Source of the DNA: Escherichia phage DCP548
Sequence record: PQ671645.1
Strand: one strand, 5' to 3'
DNA: 64,000 bases
This document shows positions 1 to 52,778 of this stretch, piece by piece (the first letter of the stretch is position 1; each line of letters starts with the position of its first letter). A program made the position numbers and the translations under genes. The notes below the pieces were generated by a model. That model was not told the DNA's origin. It did no database searches and was given only the letters and a program-made list of their open reading frames with translations.

Positions 1-762
1 AATCTTGAGGACGAACAAAACGAGTTCTCAACCAGTTAAATGGGTCTGTATCACGAGCTTTAATACAGTGCTGCATAGGATATCCGTTTAAGGATTTAGC
101 ATCATCAGCTGTAACATCAGTACTATGGAAAATATAGCAAGAGTCACGATAGCTACAATGTGTTGTATACCCTTTACCAGCATTAGAACAGAACTCATTT
201 ACAAGAACTTCAAATATTATATTGTTCTTATTACAAAACTCTGCTGCACGCTTCAGGAAAGAAACTGAACGGTTCTTATGAATTCCACAGCAGACCTTTT
301 TGATATTATATTGGTCGTGCAAGTATTTGATTTGAGTTACAGCATCGACATGTAGAATTGTTGAAACTTCAATCTCAATGTCTTTATTGACTTCACGAAC
401 AATTTCCATAACAACAGGGTTAGCGATAGTAATACGCCATACGCCTATTGACCAAAGATACTGAACATAATCCTGAATAGCTTTCTTCTTCCACTCAACT
501 AGTTCTCTTTTTGAACCAGGATTTATCGTGTTGAGTGTATAGTTAAAGCAAATACCTAATTCGTTACAACGTTTAACGTAATCTTCTAACATCTTTTTGT
601 CAACGTCAGGAAGCCTAAAATCAGGTCTGGCTGCTACAAAAGCCATTTCTCTTGTAGAGCCGTATACTTCATTTATCAAGCTATTAGGATAAGTTTTATT
701 GAGCTCTACGATTTTATCAAGAAGAGCTAAATCAAAATTCGTTCCGATTTTAAAGGTATTCA
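1..762 (-). CDS. U32-family-like protein, N-terminal 254 aa only (C-terminus lies beyond the window start)
   Basis: Minus-strand ORF from ATG at 762 running off the window edge. Motif pattern YTLNT ... EVSTILHVD ... C-x-n-GKGYTTHCSY resembles U32 (YhbU/RlhA/TrhP) proteins by memory. Confidence 0.45.
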
Positions 763-817
763 TTTTTGCATCTCGCGTTAATTGTTGCGATGGTTTTTGC
801 AGGTCTTACTTAAATTA

Positions 818-1219
818 TTATAGATTCGGTTTATATGATTTAAATGTTTCGAATTCGCCTTTATTCATAAGAGCTTTGAATTCGTCAGGACGCATAGCTT
901 TGTCGTCGATAATCCAATCATATACTGGTTTATGTGTTAGCAAATTATGGTACTTCAAGCCAATGTTTGCCAAGTTCTGAATCAGACTTGGGAGAATGTC
1001 AATTGCTATACGGCCAGGACCTACTGACTTCATACCGCGAGCAGTGTAAAGCGTTATTGTATGCCCTGCATCATACAGGGCATTAATGGCAGACACCATT
1101 TCGACGTCTGGTTTGAAGTTCACGTAATCACGATTGTTATTCCACTCTGTTATACAATCATCGACATCAAAACAAAGATTAAGCATGTTTTCTACACGGT
1201 GCATTAGATTCGTTCCCAT
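818..1219 (-). CDS. HAD-superfamily phosphatase (KdsC/GmhB-like sugar-phosphate phosphatase)
   Basis: 133 aa. Motif I CFDVDDCIT (DxD), conserved K, and DD motif (WIIDDKA). Confidence 0.55.
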   Translation of the reverse strand: MGTNLMHRVENMLNLCFDVDDCITEWNNNRDYVNFKPDVEMVSAINALYDAGHTITLYTARGMKSVGPGRIAIDILPSLIQNLANIGLKYHNLLTHKPVYDWIIDDKAMRPDEFKALMNKGEFETFKSYKPNL

Positions 1220-2889
1220 TGATGAGTGATATCGCCACCGATTGGACGATAGGAAACACCAGTTTCTTTATCAGTTAGTACCCATTTACCAGGATTTTTT
1301 GTAATCAGAGTAGCCGTTACAGGTTCTGCTACGTCATAACTAATAGAGCCGTCCTGAAGTACACGGCCCATGTTACGTAATTGCTTAGTCAGAAGTTCCA
1401 TACCTTTATAATATGCGGCTACCGCTTTAAGTGGATTATTCTTGAAATAACCACCTAATGCAATCCAGATAATTGCCACTGCCAAATGATGATACTCGTT
1501 AAACGAACTCATCTTTCCATATTTGTAAACTAATGGATTGATGTTAATAGTCACATTACAAGTTGTTTCATCAATAGTAAATTGCCCCCAGGTCGGATTA
1601 GCATTGAATTCATCATAACCTGAAACAGCATAAAGCACTTTAGCTTCATCATACAATTTTGGCCCATAAATCTTGGTTTCGCCAAAATATCCACGAGGGT
1701 CGATAAACTTGACTTCACCATTATCAGTAATCATAGTATTACTAAAGTTCGGGTCACCATGAATAACAGAGTACTGTCCCTGAGAACGGTTATGATAACG
1801 AATAAGGTGTTCTAAAGCTTGTTTCAGCATTGGCTTCAGACGCCCAATCTTAGTGTAGTTCACATGTGTGATTTTACCAAATGAATCAATCAATGGTTGA
1901 ATACTTTCACAACGATCAATAACTTTCGTATAGAACTCTTTAGTGAAATCACGACGAACAGTTTCAGGACTTACAAAATAAGTGTCTGTGCTGAATTTCA
2001 GTGCGTCTAAAATTGCATCAACAATTTGTGGACGAGCAAGACTTGATTTGGATTTAATATATTCAAATGCCGGCTTACCTTTAATGCGTTCCATTTCAAA
2101 GTTATTTTCATTAACAGAAACTAACTGAGGAACTGAATCTGATTTCACTTTAAGATACCATGAAATCTCATCTTTCTGAAGAGCTCGGCCCTGTTCGGTT
2201 AATGCGAATTTAGTTACAGTTTCTTCACCGATTTCAACTGCATTAAAACTACGATTAAGTTCACGAACTTCATGAGCCTTTTCAAGTTTAGGCATATCAC
2301 CTAAATCAATTAGATTCATAAGCTCTGATTTATTGAATGCGCTGCCGTAAAGGAATTCTACGAAATCACGTCCTTTGCAGTATTCATGAATTTCCTCATC
2401 AGTAGAACCCATATAGAATTCCCAGTCTTTGAACTGATAAATTCCTACAACATTACCACCTGTTGAACCTACGTTAGTGATATTTTCACCGTCGAAATTA
2501 TATCGACATTCGTCACCCTTAACATAGATTGCGTTAACATTCCAAGACCATGAACCAAAATCGGGAATAATATCACACCAGTTAACAATTACATTATGGC
2601 CGTCTAAATCTTTGTGCAATTTAGCAAGAGCATAAGCAGAACCATATGCTTCATCAACTGTACGAATAGTCACATTGAACCCTTCTTGCTCACAATAAGC
2701 TCGAACAGTTTCAGCAAATTTTGAATGAACTACTACAATAATTTCGTCTGCGCCAAGGTCAGAATAAATTGTATACAAATTGCTCAGAATAGTGTCTTGT
2801 TTATAGTTAACAAGCACCTTAGGAATATGATGCGTTATTGGATACAAACGAGTTGCCAGTCCAGCACCAAGAATAACAGCTTTTTTCAT
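1204..2889 (-). CDS. Bifunctional sugar-1-phosphate nucleotidyltransferase (N-terminal) / APH-ChoK-like kinase (C-terminal)
   Basis: 561 aa. N-terminal ILGAGLATRL nucleotidyltransferase signature; C-terminal HGDPNFSNTMI ... IDPRGYFG Brenner-type kinase motif. Confidence 0.6.
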   Translation of the reverse strand: MKKAVILGAGLATRLYPITHHIPKVLVNYKQDTILSNLYTIYSDLGADEIIVVVHSKFAETVRAYCEQEGFNVTIRTVDEAYGSAYALAKLHKDLDGHNVIVNWCDIIPDFGSWSWNVNAIYVKGDECRYNFDGENITNVGSTGGNVVGIYQFKDWEFYMGSTDEEIHEYCKGRDFVEFLYGSAFNKSELMNLIDLGDMPKLEKAHEVRELNRSFNAVEIGEETVTKFALTEQGRALQKDEISWYLKVKSDSVPQLVSVNENNFEMERIKGKPAFEYIKSKSSLARPQIVDAILDALKFSTDTYFVSPETVRRDFTKEFYTKVIDRCESIQPLIDSFGKITHVNYTKIGRLKPMLKQALEHLIRYHNRSQGQYSVIHGDPNFSNTMITDNGEVKFIDPRGYFGETKIYGPKLYDEAKVLYAVSGYDEFNANPTWGQFTIDETTCNVTININPLVYKYGKMSSFNEYHHLAVAIIWIALGGYFKNNPLKAVAAYYKGMELLTKQLRNMGRVLQDGSISYDVAEPVTATLITKNPGKWVLTDKETGVSYRPIGGDITHQWERI

Positions 2890-3070: not shown

Positions 3071-3706
3071 TCATTGTTCGCCTCGTAACATGGCACCTAG
3101 TGCACCGCCAGGGTGGAACTTAAGGAAATCATTAGAGGTAAATCCACGTTCAGACGAAAGGTTGATAGCAAACGTATCGATAAGCGCTAACAACAATGTA
3201 GTGGACATTGTCGGAGCTAAAGAGTTCTCGTCAACTTCTACAGCGATACCGGTACAGAACGTATAATCAAAAAGAGCTTCGTATTCTTGTGGAATGTCAG
3301 GGTTACAATGCAACAGAATCTGTTTGACGTTCGGACGAATCATTTTAAGATGCTTAGCCACGCCTATCATTTCTTCAGTTTTACCAGAACGACTAATATG
3401 AATCAACACATCATTAGGCGCAATGAATCCTGCATCACCGTGAGAATAATGCCCGGTGTTCAAGTACATACTCGGGATACCGAGTGAAGCAAATGTCTCA
3501 GAAGCTTTAGTTGCGATATTAGCGTTCTTACCAACACCTGTAATAATTACACGACTTTCATAATTACTAAGTCCAGGGCGTCGAAGAGTTTCTAGAATAG
3601 CATTATAACGAGCAGGGTTTTGACTAATTACTTTGGCCATAGCGGCCAAAGAAGAAGCTTGTTTTATGATTGCGTCAATAGCGATAGTAATAGGAGTAGT
3701 TTTCAT
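3071..3706 (-). CDS. D-arabinose-5-phosphate isomerase, SIS domain only (KdsD/GutQ/KpsF-like, no CBS pair)
   Basis: 211 aa. Block-for-block resemblance to the KdsD SIS domain: TFASLGIPS, HGDAGFI, ISRSGKTEE, LAPTMSTT, FHPGGALG. Confidence 0.7.
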   Translation of the reverse strand: MKTTPITIAIDAIIKQASSLAAMAKVISQNPARYNAILETLRRPGLSNYESRVIITGVGKNANIATKASETFASLGIPSMYLNTGHYSHGDAGFIAPNDVLIHISRSGKTEEMIGVAKHLKMIRPNVKQILLHCNPDIPQEYEALFDYTFCTGIAVEVDENSLAPTMSTTLLLALIDTFAINLSSERGFTSNDFLKFHPGGALGAMLRGEQ

Positions 3707-3746: not shown

Positions 3747-6458
3747 TCAAAAATCGAACATATCGAATAGAGATGCTTTCTTCTCGTAATCGAGTTTCGC
3801 TGCTGATGTGAATCCTTCAAGTGGTTTAATAAATGTCTTCTCAAGGAGAACAGTGTAGTCCATCCAATGAAGTACGTCGTCTTTAATTAAATCTGTGATT
3901 TCAGTACCAGAAGGCCATGCGATACATTTATCACCGAATGGGTTTCCTTCGCGTAAAGGCAGAACATATACTTTTTCACCTTCTACAACTTGCGGTGCAT
4001 CGATATTACCTTTGATAGCCCGGTTATACGTCAGAATTCCACGAATATGGAACGGGCATTTGGGACCAGGGAATCCACCTACATCATATTTAGCAATGTT
4101 ATTCGCAGAAGATACCGACGCGATGCTAATATAATTCAATTGACGGAATTCTTTTTCAAACTCTTTAAAATATTCTTGTAATGATTCTTCACCTTCTTGA
4201 AGCATACGACGAATACATTCTTTAAGAGCTTTCTGTACTGCTTTAGGAGTCGAAGATTTCTGAGTCTCTAGACCCATGATTTTGAGTTTAGGCTCAGCGT
4301 AACGAGTACCTTCCATATCCCACACGTTTAATGCATAACGTTTCTTACCAGTCCAGAATCCACCAATACCTTTAGAACCGAGTGGAGGACCAGCGATAGC
4401 TTCTCGGTCCATGAACATTAAGTGTTGTTTATTGTTCATGTATTCACACATTTCACGGAAACCTCTATCAATAGCTGGTTCCATACGTTCACGTGCAAAC
4501 TTATCTAAGAAGTCTACCCAATGGTTGGTATCACGGAATTTAGATTCACCAACCTTATCGATAATTTTATCAGCAGATACGTAAATAGAGTCTGTATCAC
4601 CATAAAGAACGAAAGCTTCACCTTCTGTGCCACAAACTTCATTCAGATATTCATTAACTTTACGTTCAATCCACTGTAAAGCCATTTGACCAAATGTTGT
4701 GATTGCAGTAGCATTACGCAAATCATAATAACGAAACCAAACGTTGCCAAGTGCACCATAAAGTGAGTTGATAAGCAATTTACGGTTAATTTGGGCAGTC
4801 ATACCTGCAACTTCAGTACGTTGAGCTCTAAACAACATTTCATTAAGAGATTTAGCAGACAACTTTTTAATCTTTTCTTTAATCTCATCGCTGAAGTCGA
4901 AACGATAATCAACATCTAATGGTTCGTCAACAGAAAGATTAGGATTATGCAATGCCTCTTTAATTATTTCACCATTACGTTGAGCTGCAAGCATGTAACC
5001 TTTATGTTCTTTACGTTGATTAAAGACCTTAGTGATTTCAGTTGGAACTACACCATCACGGTCTTTATAATACATCATGCCGTTAGGAGAACAACTGTAC
5101 ACATCAGAAGGACGTTCAGCAACAGCGTTAATATAATCATGCAATGGAGCTACTTTAAACGTTCCTGCTATTGTTTCTGGGCTAATATTCACTTGGCGAA
5201 TAATACTTGGATACAGAGATGTAAGGTCGAAACTCATTACATATTTGTATCGATTTGGAATAGGTTCCTTAACAAAAGCGCCGGGATAAGGTTGAACCGG
5301 GTGAGAACGACCTTGTGGAATCACCTTGTTCTGCTCTTTAAGGCTATTAAAAATAATAGCATCCCATGTTTTAATTGGGCTAAACACAGATTGAATCTGT
5401 ATCTTAGCATAATAACCCATGTCCAAACTCAAGTTGATGAACTGACGCTTAGCATCAATTTGCAATACACGATACACATCGATAATGTTATAAGAAATAT
5501 ATCGTTGGTGATTGCTTTCACGAAGCTTAGAAATAGGGCCGTCATATTTCAGTTTACCAACGTTCAATTCAAATTCTGAAATGTAATCCAGAGAATATGA
5601 CGGCTGATTGGTAAAAGAGAATTTTTTGTAAAGGTCAATGTAATCAAGAACAGAGATACCGAATAATGTAATGATTTCACGAGAACCATACATGTTTTCG
5701 ATAACTTTAACACGAGTTTTACGATGTGGTGATAAACGTTTCGCAGTAGATTCGCCAAAAATATTCTTGATTCGGTTATACACATATGGAATATCAAATG
5801 ACTCAACGTTCCATCCAGTCAAAATGACAGGAGTTTTCTGTTGCCAGAAGTTGAGATATTCCATCAACAATTCTTTTTCGTTATCGAACGGCATATAAAT
5901 GATTTTATCGATAATTTCGGATGGAACTTCATCACCGCCTTGTTCTTGAAGCTTAGCAGCGATTTCAATAGACCATTCTTCTACATTACCATATGGAGAA
6001 TTCAATAGATCAAATACGTAGAACCTGTCGTCAATTGAGTCATAATGGGTGATAGCATCAATCGGATGTTTTGCTTGTGACGGCTCAGGGAACCCATCTG
6101 GAGATGTTACTTCGATGTCGAAGTTAGCCACACGAATTTTTGTATGGTCGTATTTGATTTCATAGTTATAAGTGTCAGACAAATACGCCAATTTGAAATC
6201 GTCCATGCCAAGTGCTTCAAGTCCGATATCTTCCATGCGTTTAATCCATTGTGAGGCATCACGCATATTGGCGAACAACTTACGAGTACACGGCTTACCG
6301 TAGATATCGAAATATTTCGTAGCCTGACTTTCTGGACAATGAGCAAACAGTGATGGTTTATATTCTACTTCACGAGTACGTTCACGGCCGTTAGAATCGA
6401 TGTAACGTTCAAAAATTGAATCACCAATCTGTTCAACCGTTAAGTAAAATTCTTTCAT
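3747..6458 (-). CDS. 43: DNA polymerase (family B)
   Basis: 903 aa; recognisable T4/RB69 gp43 sequence with exonuclease and polymerase motifs (FDIE, YGDTDS). Confidence 0.97.
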   Translation of the reverse strand: MKEFYLTVEQIGDSIFERYIDSNGRERTREVEYKPSLFAHCPESQATKYFDIYGKPCTRKLFANMRDASQWIKRMEDIGLEALGMDDFKLAYLSDTYNYEIKYDHTKIRVANFDIEVTSPDGFPEPSQAKHPIDAITHYDSIDDRFYVFDLLNSPYGNVEEWSIEIAAKLQEQGGDEVPSEIIDKIIYMPFDNEKELLMEYLNFWQQKTPVILTGWNVESFDIPYVYNRIKNIFGESTAKRLSPHRKTRVKVIENMYGSREIITLFGISVLDYIDLYKKFSFTNQPSYSLDYISEFELNVGKLKYDGPISKLRESNHQRYISYNIIDVYRVLQIDAKRQFINLSLDMGYYAKIQIQSVFSPIKTWDAIIFNSLKEQNKVIPQGRSHPVQPYPGAFVKEPIPNRYKYVMSFDLTSLYPSIIRQVNISPETIAGTFKVAPLHDYINAVAERPSDVYSCSPNGMMYYKDRDGVVPTEITKVFNQRKEHKGYMLAAQRNGEIIKEALHNPNLSVDEPLDVDYRFDFSDEIKEKIKKLSAKSLNEMLFRAQRTEVAGMTAQINRKLLINSLYGALGNVWFRYYDLRNATAITTFGQMALQWIERKVNEYLNEVCGTEGEAFVLYGDTDSIYVSADKIIDKVGESKFRDTNHWVDFLDKFARERMEPAIDRGFREMCEYMNNKQHLMFMDREAIAGPPLGSKGIGGFWTGKKRYALNVWDMEGTRYAEPKLKIMGLETQKSSTPKAVQKALKECIRRMLQEGEESLQEYFKEFEKEFRQLNYISIASVSSANNIAKYDVGGFPGPKCPFHIRGILTYNRAIKGNIDAPQVVEGEKVYVLPLREGNPFGDKCIAWPSGTEITDLIKDDVLHWMDYTVLLEKTFIKPLEGFTSAAKLDYEKKASLFDMFDF

Positions 6459-6470
6459 TTAATTTCCTTT

Positions 6471-6486
6471 AGACGAGTTATTGTCT
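6471..6486 (-). promoter_or_regulatory. Putative gene 43 translational operator hairpin (4-bp stem, 8-nt loop AAUAACUC) just 5' of the SD
   Basis: Minus-strand agac-aataactc-gtct followed by aaaggaaattaa-ATG; the loop resembles the T4 gp43 autoregulatory operator as I remember it. Confidence 0.4.
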
Positions 6487-6489
6487 TTT

Positions 6490-6535
6490 GTTTGTTGATG
6501 AACTTATTATACTCCAAATGGGACCGAAGTCCCAT
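6490..6535 (-). promoter_or_regulatory. Early promoter-like -10 (GAGTATAAT) with adjacent 7-bp UUCG-tetraloop hairpin directly after the regA stop
   Basis: Minus strand reads atgggac-TTCG-gtcccat then ttggagTATAATaag upstream of gene 43. Confidence 0.45.
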
Positions 6536-6539
6536 TGCT

Positions 6540-6917
6540 TTAATTACCAATTGTATATTTTGCTTTCAAAGTCCAGTCATCTTTCTGTTTAAAAGAGATA
6601 ACACGGAAGTTATTAGTCAGGCCAAACAGATCTTCACGAGCAGAGTCTTCAATAACAATCAATCCCCAGTCTTCAAGCAACTGAGCAATCGAATCACGTC
6701 GCTGATAGTCTTCACCATCAATATCAACCTGACGTCCGTCCATACGCAGCATTTCTTTAAAGTGGACGATATAGTACTTACCTTGCTTTTGGAGGATATG
6801 ACAAGACTGGTAAAGGACTTTATCCTTGTTATTAGCGATGCCCATACGGGTCAAAGTCTCTTTGACTTTTAGAAAATCTTCAGGGTTCTTCAATTTAATT
6901 TCAATCATTTTTACCAT
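6540..6917 (-). CDS. regA: Translational repressor RegA
   Basis: 125 aa; close match to remembered T4 RegA ([23 protein letters not shown]). Confidence 0.9.
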
Positions 6918-7474
6918 TCCAATGCTAATTTTTTAAATTGTTTTTGTTCTTTCACATTTTTTGTAACTTCTTTGAGAAACTCATCAGTGACCATGGCCTT
7001 CAGTTCTTTAAGGACTATTGGCAACTTGTTATTTTTTTCAAGGAGCCGCTTATACTCGGTAGCATCATTCATGTTGATTGTGTAATGTTTCATCAACAGT
7101 TTGATAACTAGTAACTCTGAAGTGTCTTCGACTAGTTTAGCCCATTTAGAGAATCGACGACCACGCGGAATTGCCGCCATCATATAGTTGAAGTGCGCTT
7201 CATCACTTAATTCAGAACCGACTAAGTTCATCATGTAAACAGCTGGCATACATTCTGGGAACTGGGATAATGAGTTCTCAACCATAAATTTTGAGTAGTC
7301 AACCTGAGCAATTGACATAGATTTCTTTTCATTAATAGCATTAATGATTTTAAAGAATTCATTCTCAGGTTTTTCTTTAAACATATCAGCACATTTTTGA
7401 ATCGCATCAGCGTCATTAGACTTCCATGCAATTTGGTGCTCGTTAAGCTGGACGTCATCATCGAATAAGTTCAT
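6911..7474 (-). CDS. 62: Clamp loader small subunit
   Basis: 187 aa, between regA and 44 as in T4. Confidence 0.85.
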
Positions 7475-7475
7475 A

Positions 7476-8438
7476 TTATTTCCAAGTCAGTTCGCAGGTC
7501 AGTTGAAGAAGCATATACATAACATGTAATTCAATATTACTTGCTAATCCATGAAACTTATTGTTTTCGCCTGCAATTTCATAAAGCGAAATAATACTTT
7601 TACCAGGTGCAACTTGGTCATAACATTCTGAAACTAATTTATCGATGAACCATGAATAATCTGCGGCATATTTTGGAGCTAATGCACGAAGCTGTTTGAT
7701 ATCTTTGTTCTTCATTGCTTCTATGACATCAGAGACTGTGCCACGGTCATTAGTTACGATAGACAAAATACCCGCATCAAGAACACCTTTAGACGAGTAC
7801 TGGTCTAATTGACCGATTGTGCGACGAAAGTCCGGGAAGTTCTTTTTAACAAGAGCTGCAACAACTTTCATATCAACGATTTCGATATTTTCGTTCTTAC
7901 AGATTTCAACCATACGATGAATCATTTTCTTCATCATCGAGATTTTATCTTCTTCGGTTGGACGTCCGAATTCGATAACTCGACAACGACTACGTAATGG
8001 TTCAATAATTCCATCGATGTTGTTAGCAGTAATAACAATAGAGCAGTTACTAGAGAATTCTTCCATAAACGTACGAAGGTGACGTTGTGATTCGGCGAGG
8101 CCACTACGGTCAAATTCATCAATAACAATAACTTTAGGCTTGCCTTCCATTGAGACTGAACGAGCGAATGCGGTTAACGGACCACGCACAAAATCAATCT
8201 TACAATCAGAACCGTTGACAAACATCATTTCGGCATTGATATCATTACATAATGCTTTTGCTACTGTTGTTTTACCTGTGCCAGGAGAAGGAGAGTGCAA
8301 AATAATATGAGGAAGTTTTCCTTTAGATACTAAAGACTTGAATGTTTCATGGTCATACGCAGGCAGAATACATTCGTCAATGGAAGAAGGACGATATTTC
8401 TGTTCTAGAATGTGTTCTTTGGAATTGATAGTAATCAT
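7476..8438 (-). CDS. 44: Clamp loader large subunit (AAA+ ATPase)
   Basis: 320 aa; Walker [11 protein letters not shown]; T4 gp44-like N-terminus. Confidence 0.95.
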
Positions 8439-8513
8439 GTAATTTTCCTCATTATCATTAAACTGGAGGATTTCTCCTCCATAATAGTACTACATTAAAC
8501 GTAAAGCTTTGAC

Positions 8514-9215
8514 TTAGAAGTCGTGAGTAGAATCGGCTTCCATCGCAATAACATAACTTACTTGAGGGCTTTCAAACTTGGCTGCAACTTTATCACCAGC
8601 TCCCCACAACATTACTTTATAGTTACCTGGCTGGATTTTCATATTAGCCATATTGATTACGAAGTTAAAATTGTTAGAACCGTCATAATCGGTAAGAGTC
8701 AAAGAATACTTAGGACGGGTTAGTCCAGAATCTTCAACTTTATTATAGCCATTGATAACAATTTTACCATCTTTATTTGTAATAGCAATTGTATCAATCT
8801 GAAGACCACGTGAAACTCGAAGCAATTGTTGAAGGTCTTCGGCTTTAATTTCAGTAATCACAGAAGCCACTGGGAATTGAATTGGCTTATTAGGAAAAAC
8901 AATGGTGCTCTTGTCAGCGGCAGGCCAATAAACCGTGGAACGTGTATCTGCAATTTTAATATTGCCATCGGTGTGCATTGAAATTTCGGCATCATCAGAC
9001 ACTAGACTCAAAATGCTTAAGAAGCTATTCAAATCATAAAGTGCTACGTCAAAATCAATTTCATCAGAGATATTTGCTTCCGCATAAGTGGTGCCATTAA
9101 CTGCACGAGTCATAATAAATTTACCTTGACTCAGCAGAATGCCGGAGTTAATAGAGGCAAAGTTTTTCAGAATAGCGATAGTATCTTTAGACAGTTTCAT
9201 TTTATTTCCTTTCAA
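8514..9215 (-). CDS. 45: Sliding clamp
   Basis: T4 gp45-like sequence; the likely true start is the internal MKLSKD (about 9200). Confidence 0.93.
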   Translation of the reverse strand: MKGNKMKLSKDTIAILKNFASINSGILLSQGKFIMTRAVNGTTYAEANISDEIDFDVALYDLNSFLSILSLVSDDAEISMHTDGNIKIADTRSTVYWPAADKSTIVFPNKPIQFPVASVITEIKAEDLQQLLRVSRGLQIDTIAITNKDGKIVINGYNKVEDSGLTRPKYSLTLTDYDGSNNFNFVINMANMKIQPGNYKVMLWGAGDKVAAKFESPQVSYVIAMEADSTHDF

Positions 9216-9242
9216 GACAATTCAAAGTTTATAACAAATTTA

Positions 9243-9659
9243 TTATGCAGCAACCATTTGCTTTTTAATAGCTTCAGGCAGTGATTCAATATATTCTGGA
9301 ATTTTAGAAGCAACAATTTCGCCAGCTGCAATTAGCTGTTCGTCGGCATCAACACAGTAGAAATCTTCCAGACGCTCAGAACCATCTTTATCAAGAACGA
9401 TTTTTCCGCCGGCTTCAATAGAATCTTTATAGTGCTTACGCATCAGATGAATCCACATAACAGATACATCGTTATCAATAAAACCATAAATCATAAAACG
9501 AGTTTCTTGTGGCAAAGATTGGAGTTTTTTAGCACTTACGTCATCACAATGCAGGACCCATGCTTTACGAACACGATTATGGTTATGTGGGTTAGCGTCA
9601 GTACGGATAGAAGTAACTTTCAGATCAGCAGCAGTGAAACCTTTAGCAGTAGTAAACAT
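9243..9659 (-). CDS. rpbA: RNA polymerase-binding protein RpbA (by position)
   Basis: 138 aa immediately downstream of 45 as in T4. Confidence 0.55.
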   Translation of the reverse strand: MFTTAKGFTAADLKVTSIRTDANPHNHNRVRKAWVLHCDDVSAKKLQSLPQETRFMIYGFIDNDVSVMWIHLMRKHYKDSIEAGGKIVLDKDGSERLEDFYCVDADEQLIAAGEIVASKIPEYIESLPEAIKKQMVAA

Positions 9660-9671
9660 ATTATTTCTCTC

Positions 9672-9872
9672 TTATTCGTAGAAGTCGGTAACTGTCCATG
9701 CGGAATTGCGATTAGACATTATTTTATTATACTCATCTTTAAAAGCAGATTTGAGCATTTGTTCAGTAACAATATGTTCTTCACCTGAAAACGTATTGGT
9801 CAAAACATATTTTTTAATTTCAGGGACAACGAGAAGATGTTGGCCAGTTGAATACTCCATGTTGTTCTCCAT
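9672..9872 (-). CDS. Hypothetical small protein (45.2 position)
   Basis: 66 aa ORF, tightly packed between rpbA and 46. Confidence 0.4.
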   Translation of the reverse strand: MENNMEYSTGQHLLVVPEIKKYVLTNTFSGEEHIVTEQMLKSAFKDEYNKIMSNRNSAWTVTDFYE

Positions 9873-9914
9873 TTAATTTGATGTGGTCATTATAACCACA
9901 TCGTGTTAAAGCGT

Positions 9915-11603
9915 TTATGAAACAGTCATTACCGTAAATCGTCCAACTTTGCTCATTTGAAGATGTTGTCCATAAGCTTGTGGGTCATGGTCTCTATGAC
10001 TAATTATAAACACGTTTGCATCGGTTAGAGAGTTAAGAATTGTTGAAATAGCTTTAATACCTTCAGAATCAGTCGCGGAATCCATGACTTCGTCCATAAT
10101 TAATGTATTGATTCTAACACCAGAGACCTTTTCAGCAATATCTCGCCATGTAAACAACAATGCGATATCGATACGTGCCTTTTCACCTTGACTAAATGAA
10201 GCATAACTGAACTCTTCACGGCCACGTGATTTTATAGATTCATTGAATTCTTCGTCAATAGAAAACACGTAATCAGCTTCCATGATTTTAAGATAATGGT
10301 TAATCTGCTTGTTGAACAGAGGCACATATTTTTTAATGATAGCACCTTTAATACCAGAATCTTTTAACATATCTGTGATAATACCACGATGGTATTTTTC
10401 AAGAACGATATCAGATTTTGTTTTAATGATTTTATCAAGTTCTTTTTGAAGCAAAGCTATCTCATCAGCATGGTCGATAAATTCAGCTGAGGCTTGTTCT
10501 ATTGCAGCTTTAACTTTCTTAGCTTTATCAATAGTGGCAATCATTGCTTGTTTCTTGGTACGAATATCAGATGCAAGGTCCTGTTTAGTCTTAACATTAG
10601 CTCTATATTCGTCCACTAGGACACTCAGATTATCTCTGTGACATGTAAGTTGCTCGAATGAGTGATTACATTCATGAAGCTTATCGGTAATCTTAGAGAC
10701 AATAGGATCACCCTGGTGCAACTGCGATGCACAAGTAGGACATGTACCACCATCATGATACATCTTAATAACTTTGTTATACGAGTCGATTTTAGATTTA
10801 ATCAAGAATGCTTCTTGTCCTATCTTGTTGAATGCCTCAGTAGGGTCTTCGTCAAGAACGATATTAAGTAGTCGCTCATTAGCTTCTTCGATTTCTGCTT
10901 TTAATGAACGAGCTTCTTTGGCTAGGTCGTCATACATATTCTGTAGACGCGCTACATTATCACCAGATAATTTCTTTTGACGTTCGATATTCTCGTTATA
11001 AATCTTAATTTGTTGGATAACACCATCTTTCTTGGCATCGAGAACTTGTCCCTGTGAATTAAGTTCTCGAACTTGAGACTTATTGATTTTATCCATTTCA
11101 GCGAGTGTGCCAACTTCTAAAAGGTCTTCGACAAGTTTTCTGCGAGCAGGGGTGCTAAGAGCCATGAAAGGGGTATACCCTGCCGTCCCAAGCACAACGA
11201 TTTGTTTAAAAGACGCGTATGACATTCCGATGCTACGTTCAAATTCTTCTTGGAAGTCACGACTGCTGGCAGATTCATCAAGACGAACACCGTCAACGGA
11301 GATTTCGAAAATATTGGGCTTTTGGCCACGTTTAATGAAGTATTTTTTACCATCGAATTCCATCCAAAGCTCAACTAAGAGCTCTTTCTTGTTCGTGCTA
11401 TTAATGATTTGCCCTTTCTTAACATCACGAAATGGTTTACCGAAAAGTCCGAAAGTAATGGCTTCTAACATCGTAGATTTACCACCACCATTTTTACCAG
11501 TGATTAATGTCTTTTGGACTTTATCTAATTGGATGTCAATAGGATTCCCACCTACCGACATGATGTTTTGATAACGAACACGATTTAATTTAAATGATTT
11601 CAT
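9915..11603 (-). CDS. 46: Recombination endonuclease subunit (SbcC/Rad50-like ATPase)
   Basis: 562 aa; Walker A GKNGGGKST, long coiled coil, C-terminal Walker B/D-loop (LIMDEV). Confidence 0.92.
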   Translation of the reverse strand: MKSFKLNRVRYQNIMSVGGNPIDIQLDKVQKTLITGKNGGGKSTMLEAITFGLFGKPFRDVKKGQIINSTNKKELLVELWMEFDGKKYFIKRGQKPNIFEISVDGVRLDESASSRDFQEEFERSIGMSYASFKQIVVLGTAGYTPFMALSTPARRKLVEDLLEVGTLAEMDKINKSQVRELNSQGQVLDAKKDGVIQQIKIYNENIERQKKLSGDNVARLQNMYDDLAKEARSLKAEIEEANERLLNIVLDEDPTEAFNKIGQEAFLIKSKIDSYNKVIKMYHDGGTCPTCASQLHQGDPIVSKITDKLHECNHSFEQLTCHRDNLSVLVDEYRANVKTKQDLASDIRTKKQAMIATIDKAKKVKAAIEQASAEFIDHADEIALLQKELDKIIKTKSDIVLEKYHRGIITDMLKDSGIKGAIIKKYVPLFNKQINHYLKIMEADYVFSIDEEFNESIKSRGREEFSYASFSQGEKARIDIALLFTWRDIAEKVSGVRINTLIMDEVMDSATDSEGIKAISTILNSLTDANVFIISHRDHDPQAYGQHLQMSKVGRFTVMTVS

Positions 11604-11866
11604 ATGTATTCTCTTCGAATGAAGTCCTCTACATATTTTAACATGTCATCTCTATCAGCAAAATATTCATCTAGTTCTGCATACATAACAACACCTGGTG
11701 CGTACTCACAGGTAACATACATTGTTCCAAAGAAACGAGGAGTTGATTCCTCGTAATTCTCAGTCCATTCAACGACACCAATATAACCGTCACCAATACT
11801 AAATTCATGACGATGGATTTCATAATCAGTTTTCGTCATTATACGCATCCTTGATACATGCTTCAA
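11600..11866 (-). CDS. Hypothetical protein (46.1 position)
   Basis: 88 aa; stop overlaps the gp46 start. Confidence 0.4.
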   Translation of the reverse strand: MKHVSRMRIMTKTDYEIHRHEFSIGDGYIGVVEWTENYEESTPRFFGTMYVTCEYAPGVVMYAELDEYFADRDDMLKYVEDFIRREYI

Positions 11867-12083
11867 CCATTTTAAGAATAGAGCCAGGAGTATCGTTGTC
11901 CATTATATTAAAGCTAAATTCAATAGCCCAGTCGGTGCAGACATGAACTGCTTTAACTTCATTGCCTTCAACGCGTAATGGCTCAATCCAATACTTGATA
12001 GTGTTCTCGAATCCATCATCATCTTTAACGTCCATTTCAACTTCAAGCCTGAGTCCAGCATTGTTAAATTCATCTAAAGTCAT
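11826..12083 (-). CDS. Hypothetical protein (46.2 position)
   Basis: 85 aa ORF. Confidence 0.4.
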   Translation of the reverse strand: MTLDEFNNAGLRLEVEMDVKDDDGFENTIKYWIEPLRVEGNEVKAVHVCTDWAIEFSFNIMDNDTPGSILKMVEACIKDAYNDEN

Positions 12084-13099
12084 TGTGTTGCCTCAATATA
12101 AAGTTCGTTGGAATATTTGACCAGCGCTTCTCTGTCTTCGTCTGAGATATCTGGAATCGCGTCAATATATTCTTTAATGATATCTTGAAGTGATTTAATC
12201 TCGATTTCCTGGTCGTCATCAGATTCAACACTGTTATCAACTTTAGAAACCATACGAAGAGAGTGAACTACTTTTTCAAGTTCAGATTCAAACTTAGTCA
12301 ACTCTGAATCAATTTCTGATACTATAACACGTACGGCTAGATTAGTATAATCAGAATAATTGATTTTGCCTTTAAACGGATAAGTGATTCGTCGATGCCA
12401 TGTTGTTTCATTAGGAATAAATTCCATACGTTCAACATCGGTGTCAAATACCCAGAATCCGCGCGGGTCGTTTTCATCACCTGCAGTAAGGGTCCATGGT
12501 GTCCCAATATATTTGACGTTAGCAGCTTCAGAGATTGTGTGGAAGTGGCCAGACCAGACTTGTTTATAGGTCTTTAAGAAATCAGGTTCAAGCCCATGAG
12601 ACTTCATTCCTTTATAGAAATAAAAACCATTCAGTTCCCAGTGCCCAACACAAAAAGAAGCAGATGAAGTTTTGATATGTTCAAGAATTTCACCAGTATT
12701 TTCTTCGCACATCCAAGGAATTAAATCAATCAAACATCCGTCAAAATCTACTGTAGTAGGCTTATCGTATACTTTAACATTAGGATATTTAGCTAAAAGC
12801 TCAGTAGAAGCGTTTGGAGTTAAAGTATTTTTAAAGTGCATATCATGGTTTCCTACAACAGTATGTAGGGTAATACCAGCATCATCAAGCATTTGAACTA
12901 TTTCACGTGCGAACTCCATAGTTTTATGCGTGATTGCTTTTCGCACATCAAAAATATCGCCGTATTGAATCCATGTAGTAATTCCATTTTTCTTAGAATA
13001 TTCTATCGCCTGCTTAATTCCATCCAACTGAATGGATTGAACCCACTCATCATCGGCTTTAACACCTAAATGCCAATCACCTAAATTTAAAATTTTCAT
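12080..13099 (-). CDS. 47: Recombination endonuclease subunit (SbcD/Mre11-like phosphoesterase)
   Basis: 339 aa; calcineurin-like motifs (LGDWH, GDIFD, GNHD). Confidence 0.92.
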   Translation of the reverse strand: MKILNLGDWHLGVKADDEWVQSIQLDGIKQAIEYSKKNGITTWIQYGDIFDVRKAITHKTMEFAREIVQMLDDAGITLHTVVGNHDMHFKNTLTPNASTELLAKYPNVKVYDKPTTVDFDGCLIDLIPWMCEENTGEILEHIKTSSASFCVGHWELNGFYFYKGMKSHGLEPDFLKTYKQVWSGHFHTISEAANVKYIGTPWTLTAGDENDPRGFWVFDTDVERMEFIPNETTWHRRITYPFKGKINYSDYTNLAVRVIVSEIDSELTKFESELEKVVHSLRMVSKVDNSVESDDDQEIEIKSLQDIIKEYIDAIPDISDEDREALVKYSNELYIEATQ

Positions 13100-13143
13100 A
13101 TTATTTCCTCATTAGTTAATTCATTCTATCATCCGTTTATAAA

Positions 13144-13171
13144 GCAAAAAAAGGAACTCCGAAGAGTTCCT
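13144..13171 (-). terminator. Rho-independent terminator (8-bp stem, UUCG loop, U-run) on the minus strand
   Basis: Minus strand aggaactc-TTCG-gagttcct followed by ttttttt. Confidence 0.6.
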
Positions 13172-13343
13172 ATCCACATAGTACACCGTACAGAGGCTCA
13201 TTTGAACTTTTAAATCGAATGGGCTTGTATGTAATAGTTCCTTCGGCTTTAGCTTTATCATAAGACTCTTTAAAACGTCTCATTCTTTCTGCTTTGCCTT
13301 TACGGATTTTATCGAAATTTTCAGAAGTCGGGATGTTCGTCAT
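13170..13343 (-). CDS. Hypothetical small basic protein (57 aa, below the ORF-track cutoff)
   Basis: ATG-initiated ORF read by hand (MTNIPTSENFDKIRKGK...); ends at the terminator hairpin. Confidence 0.3.
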   Translation of the reverse strand: MTNIPTSENFDKIRKGKAERMRRFKESYDKAKAEGTITYKPIRFKSSNEPLYGVLCG

Positions 13344-13382
13344 GCATAAGCACCTCTCAGAAAATGCCTAAATCGATTTCTC

Positions 13383-13604
13383 TCATCGTTTCCACCATTT
13401 CTTAACTTGAAATGAATCGACCCACACGAGTTGTTTTGGGTCTGCCTTTACAATAGGCGGACAAATTTCTGTAATAGAACCGTCGTGATATTCCTTTTCG
13501 GAAATTTTAACACAAAGAGGACCTCCCAATTTAAGGGTGAATCCTGCGTTCAGATTAAGACGTTTAAACTTTGTTTGAACTAGCGCCATTAATGATGTCC
13601 TCAA
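13383..13604 (-). CDS. Hypothetical protein
   Basis: 73 aa ORF; start uncertain. Confidence 0.3.
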   Translation of the reverse strand: MRTSLMALVQTKFKRLNLNAGFTLKLGGPLCVKISEKEYHDGSITEICPPIVKADPKQLVWVDSFQVKKWWKR

Positions 13605-13887
13605 TAGCCTGACGAGTAGTAACCCACTGGATTTTAATTAACTTGTCATTATATGGTTGTCGTAGAATATCCCGAGATTTCTTAATAGCATATTCGTAAG
13701 CTTCGAAGTTGTTTTGAATTGCTGCTTCTTGAGCATGAGCATAAAGACGGTTTAGCTCAAAACGATTCTTTTTAAGAATCTTTTCGGATTTTTTACGTGC
13801 TTCAGCTTCATTTTTCTTTTGGATTTCTTGTAGCATTTTAGCTACTGCATCTTCTGCTTCTTTATTTTCAATAATCTCGGTAGTCAT
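13564..13887 (-). CDS. Hypothetical protein
   Basis: 107 aa charged helical ORF in the interval where T4 carries a-gt. Confidence 0.4.
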   Translation of the reverse strand: MTTEIIENKEAEDAVAKMLQEIQKKNEAEARKKSEKILKKNRFELNRLYAHAQEAAIQNNFEAYEYAIKKSRDILRQPYNDKLIKIQWVTTRQAIEDIINGASSNKV

Positions 13888-13888
13888 A

Positions 13889-14104
13889 TTATCTCATTAA
13901 ATTAAAATAAAAACGTCCATCCTCTTCAATACAGAACTCATACTCAACCGGAGTCCCATTTATCGAAAATGACACGTCATGTGGGTTCAAAGGGTCGATG
14001 TCAAAATTAATTTTAAATTCACGACCCAACAGTTTTACCAAATAAGGGATTGCTTCGTCAAAAGGTTCTTCTAAGTAGTTAGAGATGTCAATTGTCATCC
14101 TCAT
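13889..14104 (-). CDS. Hypothetical small protein
   Basis: ORF 13889..14182 trimmed to the internal Met because it overlaps gene 55. Confidence 0.3.
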
Positions 14105-14645
14105 ATAAAAAATCCAAACTAGGCGAATCGCTAACAACTTCCTTCTTTTCAGCCCCAGGAGCTTTATAAGCGGATTCTTCATAATGCGTCATTTTATCGT
14201 AGATGTCTTGAATAAACGTTTCATCTACCAACGCTACCATATCATCGTCATGACTGTCGTAGACGTTATGAACGAAGTAACTATATTTCTTTGCAACTTC
14301 CTTACGCTCTTTTTTGATACGTTGGACAAAAGCATTAAAACAAGCTCGAGTTATGTATGCATGTGGGTTATTGTACTTAGTTTCGTCGAAATTATGAAGT
14401 CCCTTAATAGAGGCTTCAATCCCATCTGCAATCATCTCCTGCTTCCAAGACTGGGTATATCCTGAAAAGTTGAAACGTTTGGACAGGCCTTCGGCGATAA
14501 GCATAATTGCTAAACCGATGGTATCATTCTGACGAATAATTTTGTTTGGGTCTTTATTATTTAAGAGCTCCTTTTTCCACTCGATTATAGCGGCGAGAAG
14601 CTCTTTATTATTCACATAGTTATTTTTAGGTTTTTGTTCAGTCAT
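14088..14645 (-). CDS. 55: Late-transcription sigma factor
   Basis: 185 aa; near-identical to remembered T4 gp55 ([52 protein letters not shown]). Confidence 0.95.
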
Positions 14646-14717
14646 AAGTACCTCTTAGCTCAATTCATAGGTCTATTATATCATAATATTTAGAGACCTA
14701 TCTTAAAGCACGAGATA

Positions 14718-14987
14718 CTATCGGAGCAAACAATAAGCCTGAAACACTTTTTCCATTAAACGTTTGAACTCATGGATATCGATATAAAGCTCAGTAAGAC
14801 CGGCATTATAAAGAAAATCTAAAAAGTTCTCATGTGTTTCGTTATAGTCGCCTTCGTTTAATTGAGATACATGAGTTTCCCAAAAACCAACACCTTTAAC
14901 GAATGGAAAATACGTGACTTTCATATATTCGTCAACATAAAATTCGCCCAGCTTTTCTTCAGTTATACTGATTCGAGTTAATTTCAT
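14718..14987 (-). CDS. Hypothetical protein (55.x region)
   Basis: 89 aa ORF. Confidence 0.35.
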   Translation of the reverse strand: MKLTRISITEEKLGEFYVDEYMKVTYFPFVKGVGFWETHVSQLNEGDYNETHENFLDFLYNAGLTELYIDIHEFKRLMEKVFQAYCLLR

Positions 14988-15211
14988 TCTAGTTCCTTTG
15001 CTGCTTCAAGAGCATCATCCAACGAATCAAATTGGTCAACGAAATCGATATTCAACGCATCGTCAGCCGTAGCATATAGCCACCATTGTTTGAATTCATA
15101 TTCTAGGATAAATCCAAGCCCTTCAATCTGAGAAAGACCTAGACTATTTGTACCAACTTCATAACCAGCTAGACGCAGGTCATTAATCAAAGTTTCTGTT
15201 AATACGCTCAT
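14984..15211 (-). CDS. Hypothetical protein
   Basis: 75 aa acidic ORF. Confidence 0.35.
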   Translation of the reverse strand: MSVLTETLINDLRLAGYEVGTNSLGLSQIEGLGFILEYEFKQWWLYATADDALNIDFVDQFDSLDDALEAAKELE

Positions 15212-47428: not shown

Positions 47429-47434
47429 ATTCTA

Positions 47435-52043: not shown

Positions 52044-52778
52044 TTACCTTAAGATTGTTTCAATTTTAGAATAAAGCTCTTCTAAAGAGCCGTCGTTTGT
52101 AATAACTAAATCGCCTTCTTCAATAGGCAACCCAGCTTCTGTAATATGTTTATCAACGGATTCCGTACCAGAGCGAACCACATGAATAACTGTAGCACCC
52201 ATCGCTCTAGCGGTTTCCATTTCATGGACTTGGCGTGTATCGGTTACAACATAGTAATCGAAATCACTTCCAATATAATCCATATAGTTTAATGCAAAAA
52301 GTTTAACCCAATACATACGGTCAAATAAATTAACGACAACATCCGTACCGAGGGCTTGCATAAGACGGCGGATTGACCATGTGTCGTTGATATTATTTAT
52401 AGCTTCACGCAGGGCTTCGTATGGTTTAATATCTAGATATGAATATCCACCTTCTAACGATGATAATACTTTAACATTATTAATTGGTAAATATTGACTT
52501 TGTAAATAAATTAGCGCTTCTTCCAATAATTCAATAACATCCAACTTATTGAGATTTAATGGCGTTTCACGGTCGTATCCAATGCCTTCAAAGTATTCGT
52601 ATTTCAACTCTGTGAATACATCAGGATTTTCAGCATGCCTACGTCCCCAGGCTATTGCTAGAGCGTCTTTAATTGGATATGCTAATTGGTATTTTACGGA
52701 TTTAAAGTTTGAATTGATGTAATCAGCAGTAGTGTCTTTACCACTACGTTTGATGCCACTTAAAAAGATTAGCTCCAT
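52044..52778 (-). CDS. 1: Deoxynucleoside monophosphate kinase
   Basis: 244 aa; P-loop GIKRSGKDT and RLMQALGTD; T4 gp1-like. Confidence 0.93.
   Translation of the reverse strand: MELIFLSGIKRSGKDTTADYINSNFKSVKYQLAYPIKDALAIAWGRRHAENPDVFTELKYEYFEGIGYDRETPLNLNKLDVIELLEEALIYLQSQYLPINNVKVLSSLEGGYSYLDIKPYEALREAINNINDTWSIRRLMQALGTDVVVNLFDRMYWVKLFALNYMDYIGSDFDYYVVTDTRQVHEMETARAMGATVIHVVRSGTESVDKHITEAGLPIEEGDLVITNDGSLEELYSKIETILR

Follow-up and report, generated by a model that had tools for sequence, protein, structure and literature searches.

The DNA of phages of the genus Mosigvirus carries mono- and di-arabinosyl-5-hydroxycytosine (Thomas 2018; NAR 2026; AEM 2026), and arabinosylated 5-hydroxycytosine has been found in chemical analyses of this DNA (PMC6024577, PMC13326640, PMC13390438). 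RB69 and NP DNA contain arabinose and not glucose (PMC6024577, PMC13390438), arabinosylated 5-hydroxy-dC has been reported in HY126 DNA (PMC13326640), and the 2026 papers give the base as 5-hydroxycytosine and not hydroxymethylcytosine (hmC) (PMC13326640, PMC13390438). The RB69 orthologue of gene 42 makes 5-hydroxy-dCMP, not hm-dCMP, and the RB69 dNMP kinase turns 5-hydroxy-dCMP into the diphosphate (PMC13326640). What a U32-like protein does, and which nucleotide acts as carrier, are predictions in the cited pathway papers, and GT-B proteins of the JS09_0177 and JS09_0137 types have been assigned as arabinosyltransferases in the literature. RB69, annotated in 2003, already shows genes 47 and 55 without the alpha-glucosyltransferase gene (a-gt) between them. 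An a-gt-free 47-55 site in RB69-type phages and the accompanying different modification are already known and documented in the literature, and a genus that lacks both T4 glucosyltransferases and uses arabinosylated 5-hydroxycytosine is textbook-level for RB69-like phages.

The window analysed here is a 64,000-nt stretch of Escherichia phage DCP548 (PQ671645.1), and its source is a Mosigvirus, an RB69/JS09-like T-even phage. Positions 12000-14700 are 99.6% identical in DNA to PNJ-6 and 98.2% to JS09, and the window aligns collinearly with positions 144584-81405 of JS09, with several small indels between the two. JS09, ST0, PNJ-6 and pEK20, which represent the species Mosigvirus JS09 and close relatives, are 98-99.6% identical in DNA across the interval and share with DCP548 both an empty a-gt site and a Tequatrovirus-like tract in gene 47. 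One continuous match over at least 80% of the 2.7-kb interval is found in 146 phage records. The segment flagged in the initial annotation, 13100-14090, is exactly the 47-55 interval, bounded by gene 47 (12080-13099) and gene 55 (14088-14645). The interval and its flanks are laid out as follows.

12080..13099, minus strand: gene 47, 339 aa, a recombination nuclease subunit of SbcD/Mre11 type; flanks the a-gt site downstream
13100..13169, no strand: empty a-gt site proper, the 70-nt spacer from the a-gt.2 orthologue to gene 47
13170..13343, minus strand: a-gt.2 orthologue (DUF5486), 57 aa; 76% identity to T4 a-gt.2, E 3e-24; PF17588 at 4.5e-28
13383..13589, minus strand: a-gt.3 orthologue, 68 aa (73 aa from the first TTG); 69% identity to T4 a-gt.3, E 8e-29; phrog_1648
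13564..13887, minus strand: a-gt.4 orthologue (DUF2654), 107 aa; 58% identity to T4 a-gt.4, E 2.5e-32; PF10849 at 1e-27
13889..14098, minus strand: a-gt.5 orthologue (DUF5491), 69 aa (71 aa if the start is at 14104); 47% identity to T4 a-gt.5, E 1e-14; PF17595 at 1.4e-12
14088..14645, minus strand: gene 55 for the late sigma factor (185 aa); flanks the interval upstream

The flanking genes are well conserved: the gene 47 product has a Metallophos domain, 86.4% amino acid identity to T4 gp47 and a match to phrog_100 at 5e-141, and the gene 55 product is 90.7% identical to T4 gp55 over 182 aligned residues and matches phrog_234 at 4e-68. Between them, by sequence and position, the four small ORFs are orthologues of T4 a-gt.2, a-gt.3, a-gt.4 and a-gt.5 and not fillers, with the same order and overlaps between 55 and 47 as in T4 (E 3e-24 to 1e-14). 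The gene at 13170..13343 is annotated as a-gt.2 in JS09 and RB69, a-gt.4 belongs to the ORFs that T4 shares with five T4-like genomes (PMC1524935), and the a-gt.5 ORF, for which a mechanical ORF list gives 97 aa, overlaps the end of gene 55. Searches of PHROGs, Pfam, NCBIfam, PDB sequences and the literature for a function of the four ORFs returned DUF families only, with no NCBIfam family or PDB relative. A PHROG label of 'head maturation protease' for a-gt.2 was disregarded, as it reflects a 34-residue match to a 62-position profile. The small ORFs coexist with a-gt in T4, and their presence therefore says nothing about modification.

The same order is common to RB69, JS09, ST0 and HY126, that is every Mosigvirus examined, and to Gaprivervirus VR25. 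In RB69 (NC_004928), gene order and spacing from 47 through a-gt.2, a-gt.3, a-gt.4 and a-gt.5 to 55 are identical to those of DCP548, and the interval aligns at 93.6% DNA identity with a single 1-nt gap. The RB69 a-gt.4 and a-gt.5 proteins are 100% identical to those of DCP548; the two phages share one terminator hairpin sequence, and a single base separates their promoter regions. The difference between the two phages lies in the first 445 nt of gene 47, which are only ~71% identical and are of Tequatrovirus type in DCP548.

The T4 locus (47 / 47.1 / a-gt / mobB / a-gt.2 to a-gt.5 / 55) has the same flanking genes and small ORFs, a UUCG terminator hairpin after a-gt.2 and a MotA-box promoter before 47, each of the same kind as in DCP548. 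Unlike DCP548, T4 carries a further 2.25 kb with a-gt, which encodes an alpha-glucosyltransferase of GT-B type, mobB, which encodes an HNH homing endonuclease, and 47.1, a small membrane ORF. Alignment with T4 and RB69, which the initial annotation had proposed, shows collinearity with RB69 and, by blastn, two blocks of similarity to T4 that leave T4 locus positions 8451-10702 without a match; this extra cargo of mobB, a-gt and 47.1 amounts to 2,252 nt, for which DCP548 has the 70-nt spacer instead. The T4 annotation table confirms the claim that T4 a-gt lies between 47 and 55, and DCP548 indeed has only small ORFs (four) and one intrinsic terminator there. The description of this interval as an a-gt slot held up as to the absence of a-gt, but not as to its extent, as the true site is the spacer at 13100-13169 and the small ORFs are also in T4. 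The canonical glucosylation enzyme is missing at this position, as had been stated.

Two regulatory elements occupy the spacer.

13145..13171, minus strand: intrinsic terminator, an 8-bp stem AGGAACUC-UUCG-GAGUUCCU followed by U7; its start falls within the 57-aa ORF's stop codon
13123..13149, minus strand: MotA-dependent middle-promoter-like site for gene 47, TTTTGCTTTA, 11 nt, TAGAAT

The terminator hairpin alone folds at -11.7 kcal/mol, and its position is kept in RB69, T4 and Gaprivervirus VR25, with T4 and VR25 stems that differ in sequence and still pair. A consensus scan for terminators taken alone gives no excess over chance (2 sites against an expected 2.1), and the fold of the whole 101-nt spacer has no significant structure (z = -0.71), such that only the local hairpin matters. 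Judged on its sequence and conservation, the terminator is real and ends the 55/a-gt.5-a-gt.2 transcription unit. A terminator-like hairpin on the plus strand at 13440-13462 lies antisense inside a-gt.3 in a scan that does no better than shuffles, and was set aside as chance. The promoter-like site fits the MotA middle-promoter consensus, (a/t)3TGCTTtA-N11-13-TAtaAT (PMC1524935), also with the last element relaxed to TAnnnT, and this class of motif has 5 minus-strand matches in the window versus 0.44 in shuffles. It probably functions as a middle promoter for gene 47; motA itself lies beyond the window, and in JS09 it is JS09_0190.

In other T-even phages the a-gt cassette is bracketed by repeated modules of UUCG hairpin and MotA box. 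The module occurs once in DCP548 and twice in T4, and in T4, RB27 and Mineola the stem-loop and promoter are repeated at both a-gt borders. The modules resemble the composite terminator/promoter cassettes known as PeSLs in T4-type phages (Arbiol 2010, PMC2839356; Comeau 2014, PMC4122927) in that a stem-loop is directly followed by a promoter, recurs at either side of a variable cassette of genes, and offers short homologies for gain or loss of that cassette. They differ in that PeSLs are defined with early promoters, whereas the promoter part at the a-gt borders fits the MotA middle consensus and not the early one.

The search for a-gt and b-gt homologues that had been suggested as a check gave nothing significant in either the window or complete JS09. 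The T4 a-gt and b-gt queries (tblastn, phmmer) have no significant match in the window (best E 0.54, a-gt tblastn), and phmmer, run on all six-frame ORFs (50 aa or longer) of the window and of the complete JS09 genome, found neither at E<=10; the similarity sought was a protein of ~400 aa recognisably like T4 a-gt. With two JS09 GT-B proteins added to the queries, no glucosyltransferase paralogue was found in the window by tblastn and phmmer, and in complete JS09 the same four queries matched only the known JS09 GT-B genes. In T4, b-gt lies between 42 and uvsX, a position that falls mostly beyond the window and is occupied by an arabinosylation module in JS09. Among the loci compared, a-gt lies between a-gt.2 and 47 in T4, RB27, PP01, ECO4 and Mineola. 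A tblastn census of a-gt across phage records gives identity bands for Tequatrovirus (at least 90%) and Klebsiella phages (60-80%), and no band corresponding to Mosigvirus. The cassette is present in Tequatrovirus and Jiaodavirus and absent from Mosigvirus and Gaprivervirus; as to loss or gain, the identities of gp47 and gp55 give no clear branching order for these genera.

Four genes of the arabinosyl-5-hydroxycytosine pathway are found at 1-3706 of the window, and the dNMP kinase gene lies apart from them.

2..763, minus strand: RB69 gp50-like (U32 peptidase-like) protein, N-terminal 254 aa, truncated at the edge of the window; matches residues 1-254 of JS09_0134 at 100% identity
818..1204, minus strand: HAD-type phosphatase (RB69 gp51, HY126 AfhF analogue), 128 aa, or 133 aa with the first ATG (1219) as start; 99.2% identical to JS09_0133
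1204..2889, minus strand: bifunctional sugar kinase/nucleotidyltransferase (RB69 gp52:53, HY126 AfhE analogue), 561 aa; 100% identical to JS09_0132
3071..3706, minus strand: arabinose-5-phosphate isomerase (RB69 gp55/JS09_0131 orthologue), first step of the pathway; 98.6% identical to JS09_0131
52047..52778, minus strand: dNMP kinase (gene 1; RB69 gp159 orthologue); 99.2% identical to JS09_026

The isomerase, which adjoins the DNA polymerase gene 43 (3747-6458), has a SIS domain, matches the KpsF/KdsD families at 2e-32 and 1e-30 and is related to PDB entries 3etn and 2xhz. The bifunctional protein has an N-terminal NTP_transferase domain and weak C-terminal kinase-like matches, and its function, the making of NDP-arabinofuranose, is taken from PMC13326640. 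The phosphatase matches PDB 9iqw_A at E 7.8e-88 and TIGR01689, a capsule biosynthesis phosphatase family. In comparison with the pathways of RB69, HY126 (the Afh genes) and DLP3, the window holds orthologues of the isomerase, kinase/nucleotidyltransferase, HAD phosphatase, U32-like protein and dNMP kinase, and the pathway genes likewise sit between gene 43 and uvsX. The synthase and transferases fall outside the window, and nothing points to a difference in pathway. The 5-hydroxy-dCMP synthase (a thymidylate synthase homologue, RB69 gp48) is expected ~1.5 kb past the left edge; its JS09 counterpart, JS09_0136, is the gene 42 homologue and is 25% identical to T4 gp42, the dCMP hydroxymethylase. 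The arabinosyltransferases (RB69 gp46:47 and gp3) also lie beyond the window, JS09 having JS09_0137 (transferase 1) and JS09_0177 (transferase 2), and JS09_0136 and JS09_0137 sit in JS09 directly past the point corresponding to the window edge. From JS09 synteny and the literature, and with relatives 97-99% identical, the synthase and transferases of the JS09_0137 and JS09_0177 types are probably present in DCP548 outside the window, and on the same basis its virion DNA is likely to be arabinosylated. The arabinose-activation genes at 1-3706, together with the published Mosigvirus DNA chemistry, support the earlier suggestion of a different DNA hypermodification.

We therefore consider it very probable that DCP548 is a Mosigvirus with a compact 47-55 interval, without a-gt or b-gt, and with arabinosylated 5-hydroxycytosine in place of glucosyl-hmC. 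The interval would be the compact version of an early/middle transcription unit conserved in T-even phages, in the order 55, a-gt.5, a-gt.4, a-gt.3, a-gt.2, terminator, MotA-type middle promoter and gene 47. By homology with the RB69 and HY126 enzymes, the thymidylate synthase homologue would make 5-hydroxy-dCMP, which the dNMP kinase and host enzymes would convert to the triphosphate for incorporation at replication. The phage isomerase, kinase/nucleotidyltransferase and HAD phosphatase would supply NDP-arabinofuranose, and two GT-B arabinosyltransferases would put one or two arabinoses on the 5-hydroxyl on DNA. Neither a-gt nor b-gt would be needed because no hydroxymethylcytosine is made, and the genus would have no a-gt because its cytosines are decorated with arabinose rather than glucose. 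Following the 2026 papers, the a-gt enzyme appears to be missing together with its substrate, hmC.

It could be argued that hmC is still glucosylated by a relocated or highly diverged glucosyltransferase and that the empty slot reflects relocation only, as ~105 kb of the DCP548 genome lie beyond the window and relatives carry two GT-B glycosyltransferases elsewhere (JS09_0177 and JS09_0137). These two proteins are not detectable by sequence as a-gt or b-gt homologues, and complete JS09 has no similarity to either T4 enzyme at E<=10. The limited identity of the relatives' gene 42 homologue to the T4 hydroxymethylase, the 5-hydroxy-dCMP product of its RB69 orthologue, the arabinose in RB69, NP and HY126 DNA, and the arabinose-5-phosphate isomerase and activating enzymes in the window all make relocation highly improbable.

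Precise deletion is mechanically conceivable, given that short direct repeats (the UUCG hairpin plus GCTTTATA) flank the T4 cassette; nevertheless, a recent deletion or assembly artefact peculiar to the DCP548 sequence is scarcely credible when the 146 records match the interval continuously, RB69, JS09, ST0, HY126 and VR25 have the same order, and a single 1-nt gap interrupts the collinearity with RB69. Hardly any weight falls, either, on functional replacement of a-gt by the four small ORFs, for example as a DCP548-specific modification or anti-restriction module. Their lack of a Pfam function, NCBIfam family or PDB relative would leave room for such a role, but orthologues coexist with a-gt in T4, RB27, PP01 and Mineola and are equally present in phages without it; occurring with and without a-gt, the small ORFs are therefore independent of the kind of modification.

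A further feature abuts the empty site.

12654..13099, minus strand: Tequatrovirus-derived tract of ~445 nt at the 5' end of gene 47; it reaches to the start codon, the point at which homology with phages that carry a-gt breaks off

This segment is 98.0% identical to Tequatrovirus PP01 and 70.6-71.5% identical to Mosigvirus HY126 and RB69, whereas the remainder of 47 and 46.x has 97-98% identity with Mosigvirus and 72.6% with PP01. Window positions 4600-15100 contain no other T4-like patch and, from these identities, the segment is a recombination tract between genera, from Tequatrovirus to Mosigvirus. JS09 has another inner breakpoint of the tract and is 94.6% identical within it. An assembly chimera was rejected as the source of the gene 47 mosaic, which is common to 16 full-length records under 13 differently named phages.

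HNH endonuclease genes are found at the 47 junction in Tequatroviruses, namely mobB in T4 and an HNH gene overlapping the 47 start in ECO4. One tentative and rather unlikely reading is that the tract was left by gene conversion, stimulated by an endonuclease, when a glucosyl-hmC phage and an arabinosyl-5-hydroxycytosine phage infected the same cell. A free-standing Tequatrovirus HNH enzyme would cut Mosigvirus gene 47, and repair would copy the donor only to the end of homology; a-gt would therefore not be transferred, or would be lost for want of substrate. If true, genera whose DNA chemistries are incompatible do exchange DNA in nature, against the recombination barrier reported for RB69, and gene 47 would be a candidate target for one of the HNH endonucleases.

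For a genome scan, the value of these observations lies in a correct annotation of the window: its genus, its type of modification and the genes of the pathway that it contains. Small concrete additions are the repeat-defined borders of the a-gt cassette and a clean Tequatrovirus-to-Mosigvirus tract abutting an indel. Arabinosylated 5-hydroxycytosine alters sensitivity to type IV restriction, CRISPR and other defences, and a tract in this position bears on whether differing hypermodifications genetically isolate the T-even genera.

The interval read in the initial annotation as the alpha-glucosyltransferase (a-gt) slot, 13100-14090, is exactly the stretch from gene 47 to gene 55, in a part of the window where the minus strand carries every gene. 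It holds four small open reading frames (ORFs) that match T4 a-gt.5 to a-gt.2 with E values of 1e-14 to 3e-24:

14088-14645, minus strand: gene 55, 185 aa, 91% identical to T4 over aligned residues
13889-14098, minus strand: a-gt.5 orthologue, 69 aa, 47% identity to T4
13564-13887, minus strand: a-gt.4 orthologue, 107 aa, 58% identity to T4
13383-13589, minus strand: a-gt.3 orthologue, 68 aa, 69% identity to T4
13170-13343, minus strand: a-gt.2 orthologue, 57 aa, 76% identity to T4
12080-13099, minus strand: gene 47, 339 aa, 86% identical to T4 gp47

The block is tightly packed, with the ORF at 13889-14098 overlapping the end of gene 55 and those at 13564-13887 and 13383-13589 sharing 26 nt. 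All four ORFs are annotated in close relatives, under the names a-gt.2 to a-gt.5 in the RB69 and JS09 records, and a-gt.4 is among the ORFs conserved across T4 and five T4-like genomes (PMC1524935). They match DUF5491, DUF2654, DUF5486 and PHROGs of unknown function, and a search for their functions yielded none that could be assigned. Because a-gt.2 to a-gt.5 are found in phages with a-gt and in phages without it, the names record where these ORFs map and do not imply a part in glucosylation. The block closes with a hairpin, AGGAACUC-UUCG-GAGUUCCU, followed by seven U (13171-13145; -11.7 kcal/mol), and the description of the interval as ORFs of 57-107 aa plus a terminator is correct as written.

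The T4 gene order (55, a-gt.5, a-gt.4, a-gt.3, a-gt.2, mobB, a-gt, 47.1, 47) confirms that a-gt lies between 47 and 55 in that phage. T4 also has all four small ORFs, and the window lacks only the last block (mobB, a-gt, 47.1). In blastn alignments, the match to T4 falls into two collinear segments, and 2,252 nt of T4 (47.1, a-gt, mobB) have no partner, while RB69 is collinear throughout, aligning over the full 2,566 nt at 93.6% identity with one 1-nt gap. The 70-nt spacer at 13100-13169 is the true a-gt site.

No a-gt or b-gt homologue was found elsewhere in the window or in the complete genome of JS09, which was assembled from four pieces and aligns collinearly with the window (91-98% identity). 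A tblastn search of the 64 kb with T4 a-gt, b-gt, mobB and 47.1 turned up nothing significant (best E 0.28-1.9), and phmmer with a-gt and b-gt gave zero matches at E<=10 among the six-frame ORFs, 50 aa or longer, of JS09 and the window. A tblastn census of 50,697 phage records returned 657 with a match to T4 a-gt. Their identities form one band at 90% or more (Tequatrovirus) and another at 60-80% (Klebsiella phages), and no band that could be Mosigvirus. Tequatrovirus and Jiaodavirus have the gene; Mosigvirus and Gaprivervirus lack it.

Several segments of the window have no blastn match in JS09. Six of these (35287-35575, 37378-37745, 38255-38390, 46834-47050, 47375-47944 and 51013-51253) correspond to the JS09 region of vs, internal-protein, e.x, RB69-specific-ORF and tRNA genes; the sole match of the ORF at 47435-47899 (154 aa) is a PHROG of unknown function. 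Another, of 756 nt, holds a 222-aa ORF (48709-49377, minus strand) adjoining tRNA-Met (49434-49508), the window's sole tRNA gene. Its NUMOD3 motif, its DUF559/RAP-type nuclease domain and its weak resemblance to PHROGs of homing and HNH endonucleases give it the appearance of a free-standing, homing-endonuclease-like gene.

The interval is 99.6% identical to PNJ-6 and 98.2-99.2% identical to ST0 and JS09, both classified as Mosigvirus JS09. For 1-3706 the identity to this group is 98-98.6%, and that segment carries genes of an arabinose pathway directly adjoining the DNA polymerase gene 43 (3747-6458); they are listed here together with the dNMP kinase gene, which lies farther along the window:

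2-763: first 254 residues of a U32-like protein, RB69 gp50 orthologue
818-1204: HAD phosphatase, RB69 gp51 orthologue (PDB 9iqw_A, E 7.8e-88)
1204-2889: nucleotidyltransferase/kinase, 561 aa, 100% identical to JS09_0132, RB69 gp52:53 orthologue
3071-3706: arabinose-5-phosphate isomerase, KpsF/KdsD families (PDB 2xhz, 3etn), RB69 gp55 orthologue
52047-52778: dNMP kinase (gene 1), RB69 gp159 orthologue

The near-identical structure matched by the phosphatase (window 818-1219) may be that of HY126 AfhF; it was deposited as 'Capsule biosynthesis protein', a title that would mislead automatic annotation.

RB69 lacks a-gt and b-gt and carries arabinose in place of glucose (PMC6024577), the base being 5-hydroxycytosine with one or two arabinofuranoses; the 5-hydroxy-dCMP synthase of RB69 is gp48, and gp46:47 and gp3 are proposed arabinosyltransferases (PMC13326640). 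The latter source, with reference to He et al. (Nat Chem Biol 2026), attributes the preparation of activated arabinose to HY126 AfhE and AfhF (RB69 analogues gp52:53 and gp51). It also states that the HY126 pathway was reconstituted biochemically. Mosigvirus NP contains mono- and di-arabinosylated dC in a ratio of 1:4 (PMC13390438). JS09 has a synthase (JS09_0136, only 25% identical to T4 gp42) and first and second transferases (JS09_0137 and JS09_0177); the positions of JS09_0136 and JS09_0137 fall just past the left edge of the window. The proposal that the missing a-gt goes with a different DNA hypermodification is therefore supported by the arabinose genes and the Mosigvirus literature. 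HY126 has the same arrangement (47, four small ORFs, 55). The proposal is right but restates published knowledge: RB69-like phages were already known to have an empty a-gt slot.

Within the empty site, the hairpin and U-run are followed by TTTTGCTTTA, 11 nt and TAGAAT (13149-13123), which fits the middle-promoter consensus (a/t)3TGCTTtA-N11-13-TAtaAT applied to T4 and RB69 (PMC1524935), a pattern with five matches on the window's minus strand versus 0.44 in shuffles. Two such modules, each a UUCG hairpin and then a (T)GCTTTA MotA box, bracket a-gt in T4 (10675-10747 and 8580-8640 of the locus sequence), RB27 and Klebsiella phage Mineola, and phages without a-gt have one copy (window 13123-13171, RB69, VR25). 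The RB69 module is the same as that of the window except for a T-run one base shorter and one substitution in the -10 element, and in Gaprivervirus VR25 the stem differs yet pairs (GGAAGC/GCTTCC). The hairpin of the window module, fused to the a-gt.2 stop codon, resembles the left copy of T4, whereas its promoter spacer resembles the right copy (CGGA..TGATAnAATGA). This mixture is the pattern that would be expected had exchange in the shared GCTTTATA core added or removed the cassette, and short direct repeats at the cassette borders could mediate its gain or loss. The identities of gp47 and gp55 settle neither the branching nor loss versus gain of a-gt. A close idea is the PeSL terminator/promoter cassette (PMC2839356, PMC4122927), but in this phage the promoter part belongs to the middle class.

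Gene 47 itself is a mosaic. From the 46.1-46.2 region to the start of 47, Tequatrovirus PP01 and Mosigvirus HY126 differ at 360 sites. At these the window follows the Mosigvirus type as far as 12644 and, from 12654 to 13088, the Tequatrovirus type at 126 of 129.

Identity of the gene 47 tract and the adjacent segment to four phages
12654-13099 (tract, 445 nt): PP01 98.0%, T4 90.4%, HY126 70.6%, RB69 71.5%
11830-12644 (adjacent): PP01 72.6%, T4 72.4%, HY126 97.3%, RB69 98.4%

The flanks are 97-100% Mosigvirus-type, and the tract is the sole T4-like patch between 4600 and 15100; many Tequatroviruses are 96-98.4% identical to it. By identity arithmetic it is common to the 16 records with no less than 97.7% identity over the 2.7-kb interval. 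Approximately 129 records fall at 90-95%, and most of these, HY126, PhAPEC2 and APCEc01 among them, are RB69-type here. JS09, ST0, PNJ-6 and pEK20 belong to the subgroup with the tract, although the inner breakpoint in JS09 differs from that of the window.

The tract and the homology with a-gt-carrying phages stop together at the 47 start codon, exactly at the empty a-gt site. In T4 this junction holds the free-standing HNH endonuclease gene mobB, whose target is unknown (PMC2988022), and in Escherichia phage ECO4 (3628-4251 of its locus) a gene for a 207-aa HNH endonuclease lies between a-gt and 47, overlapping the start of 47; there and in some other Tequatroviruses it stands in place of 47.1. 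The junction is thus a repeated landing site for free-standing endonucleases, and endonuclease-stimulated conversion is therefore a reasonable putative cause of the tract. What is new, namely the borders of the cassette and the tract in gene 47, is minor and worth an annotation line, not a discovery. RB69 is described as incapable of recombining with T4 (PMC6024577); the tract shows that, despite this reported barrier, exchange between Tequatrovirus and Mosigvirus has happened in nature, at least at the gene 47 locus.
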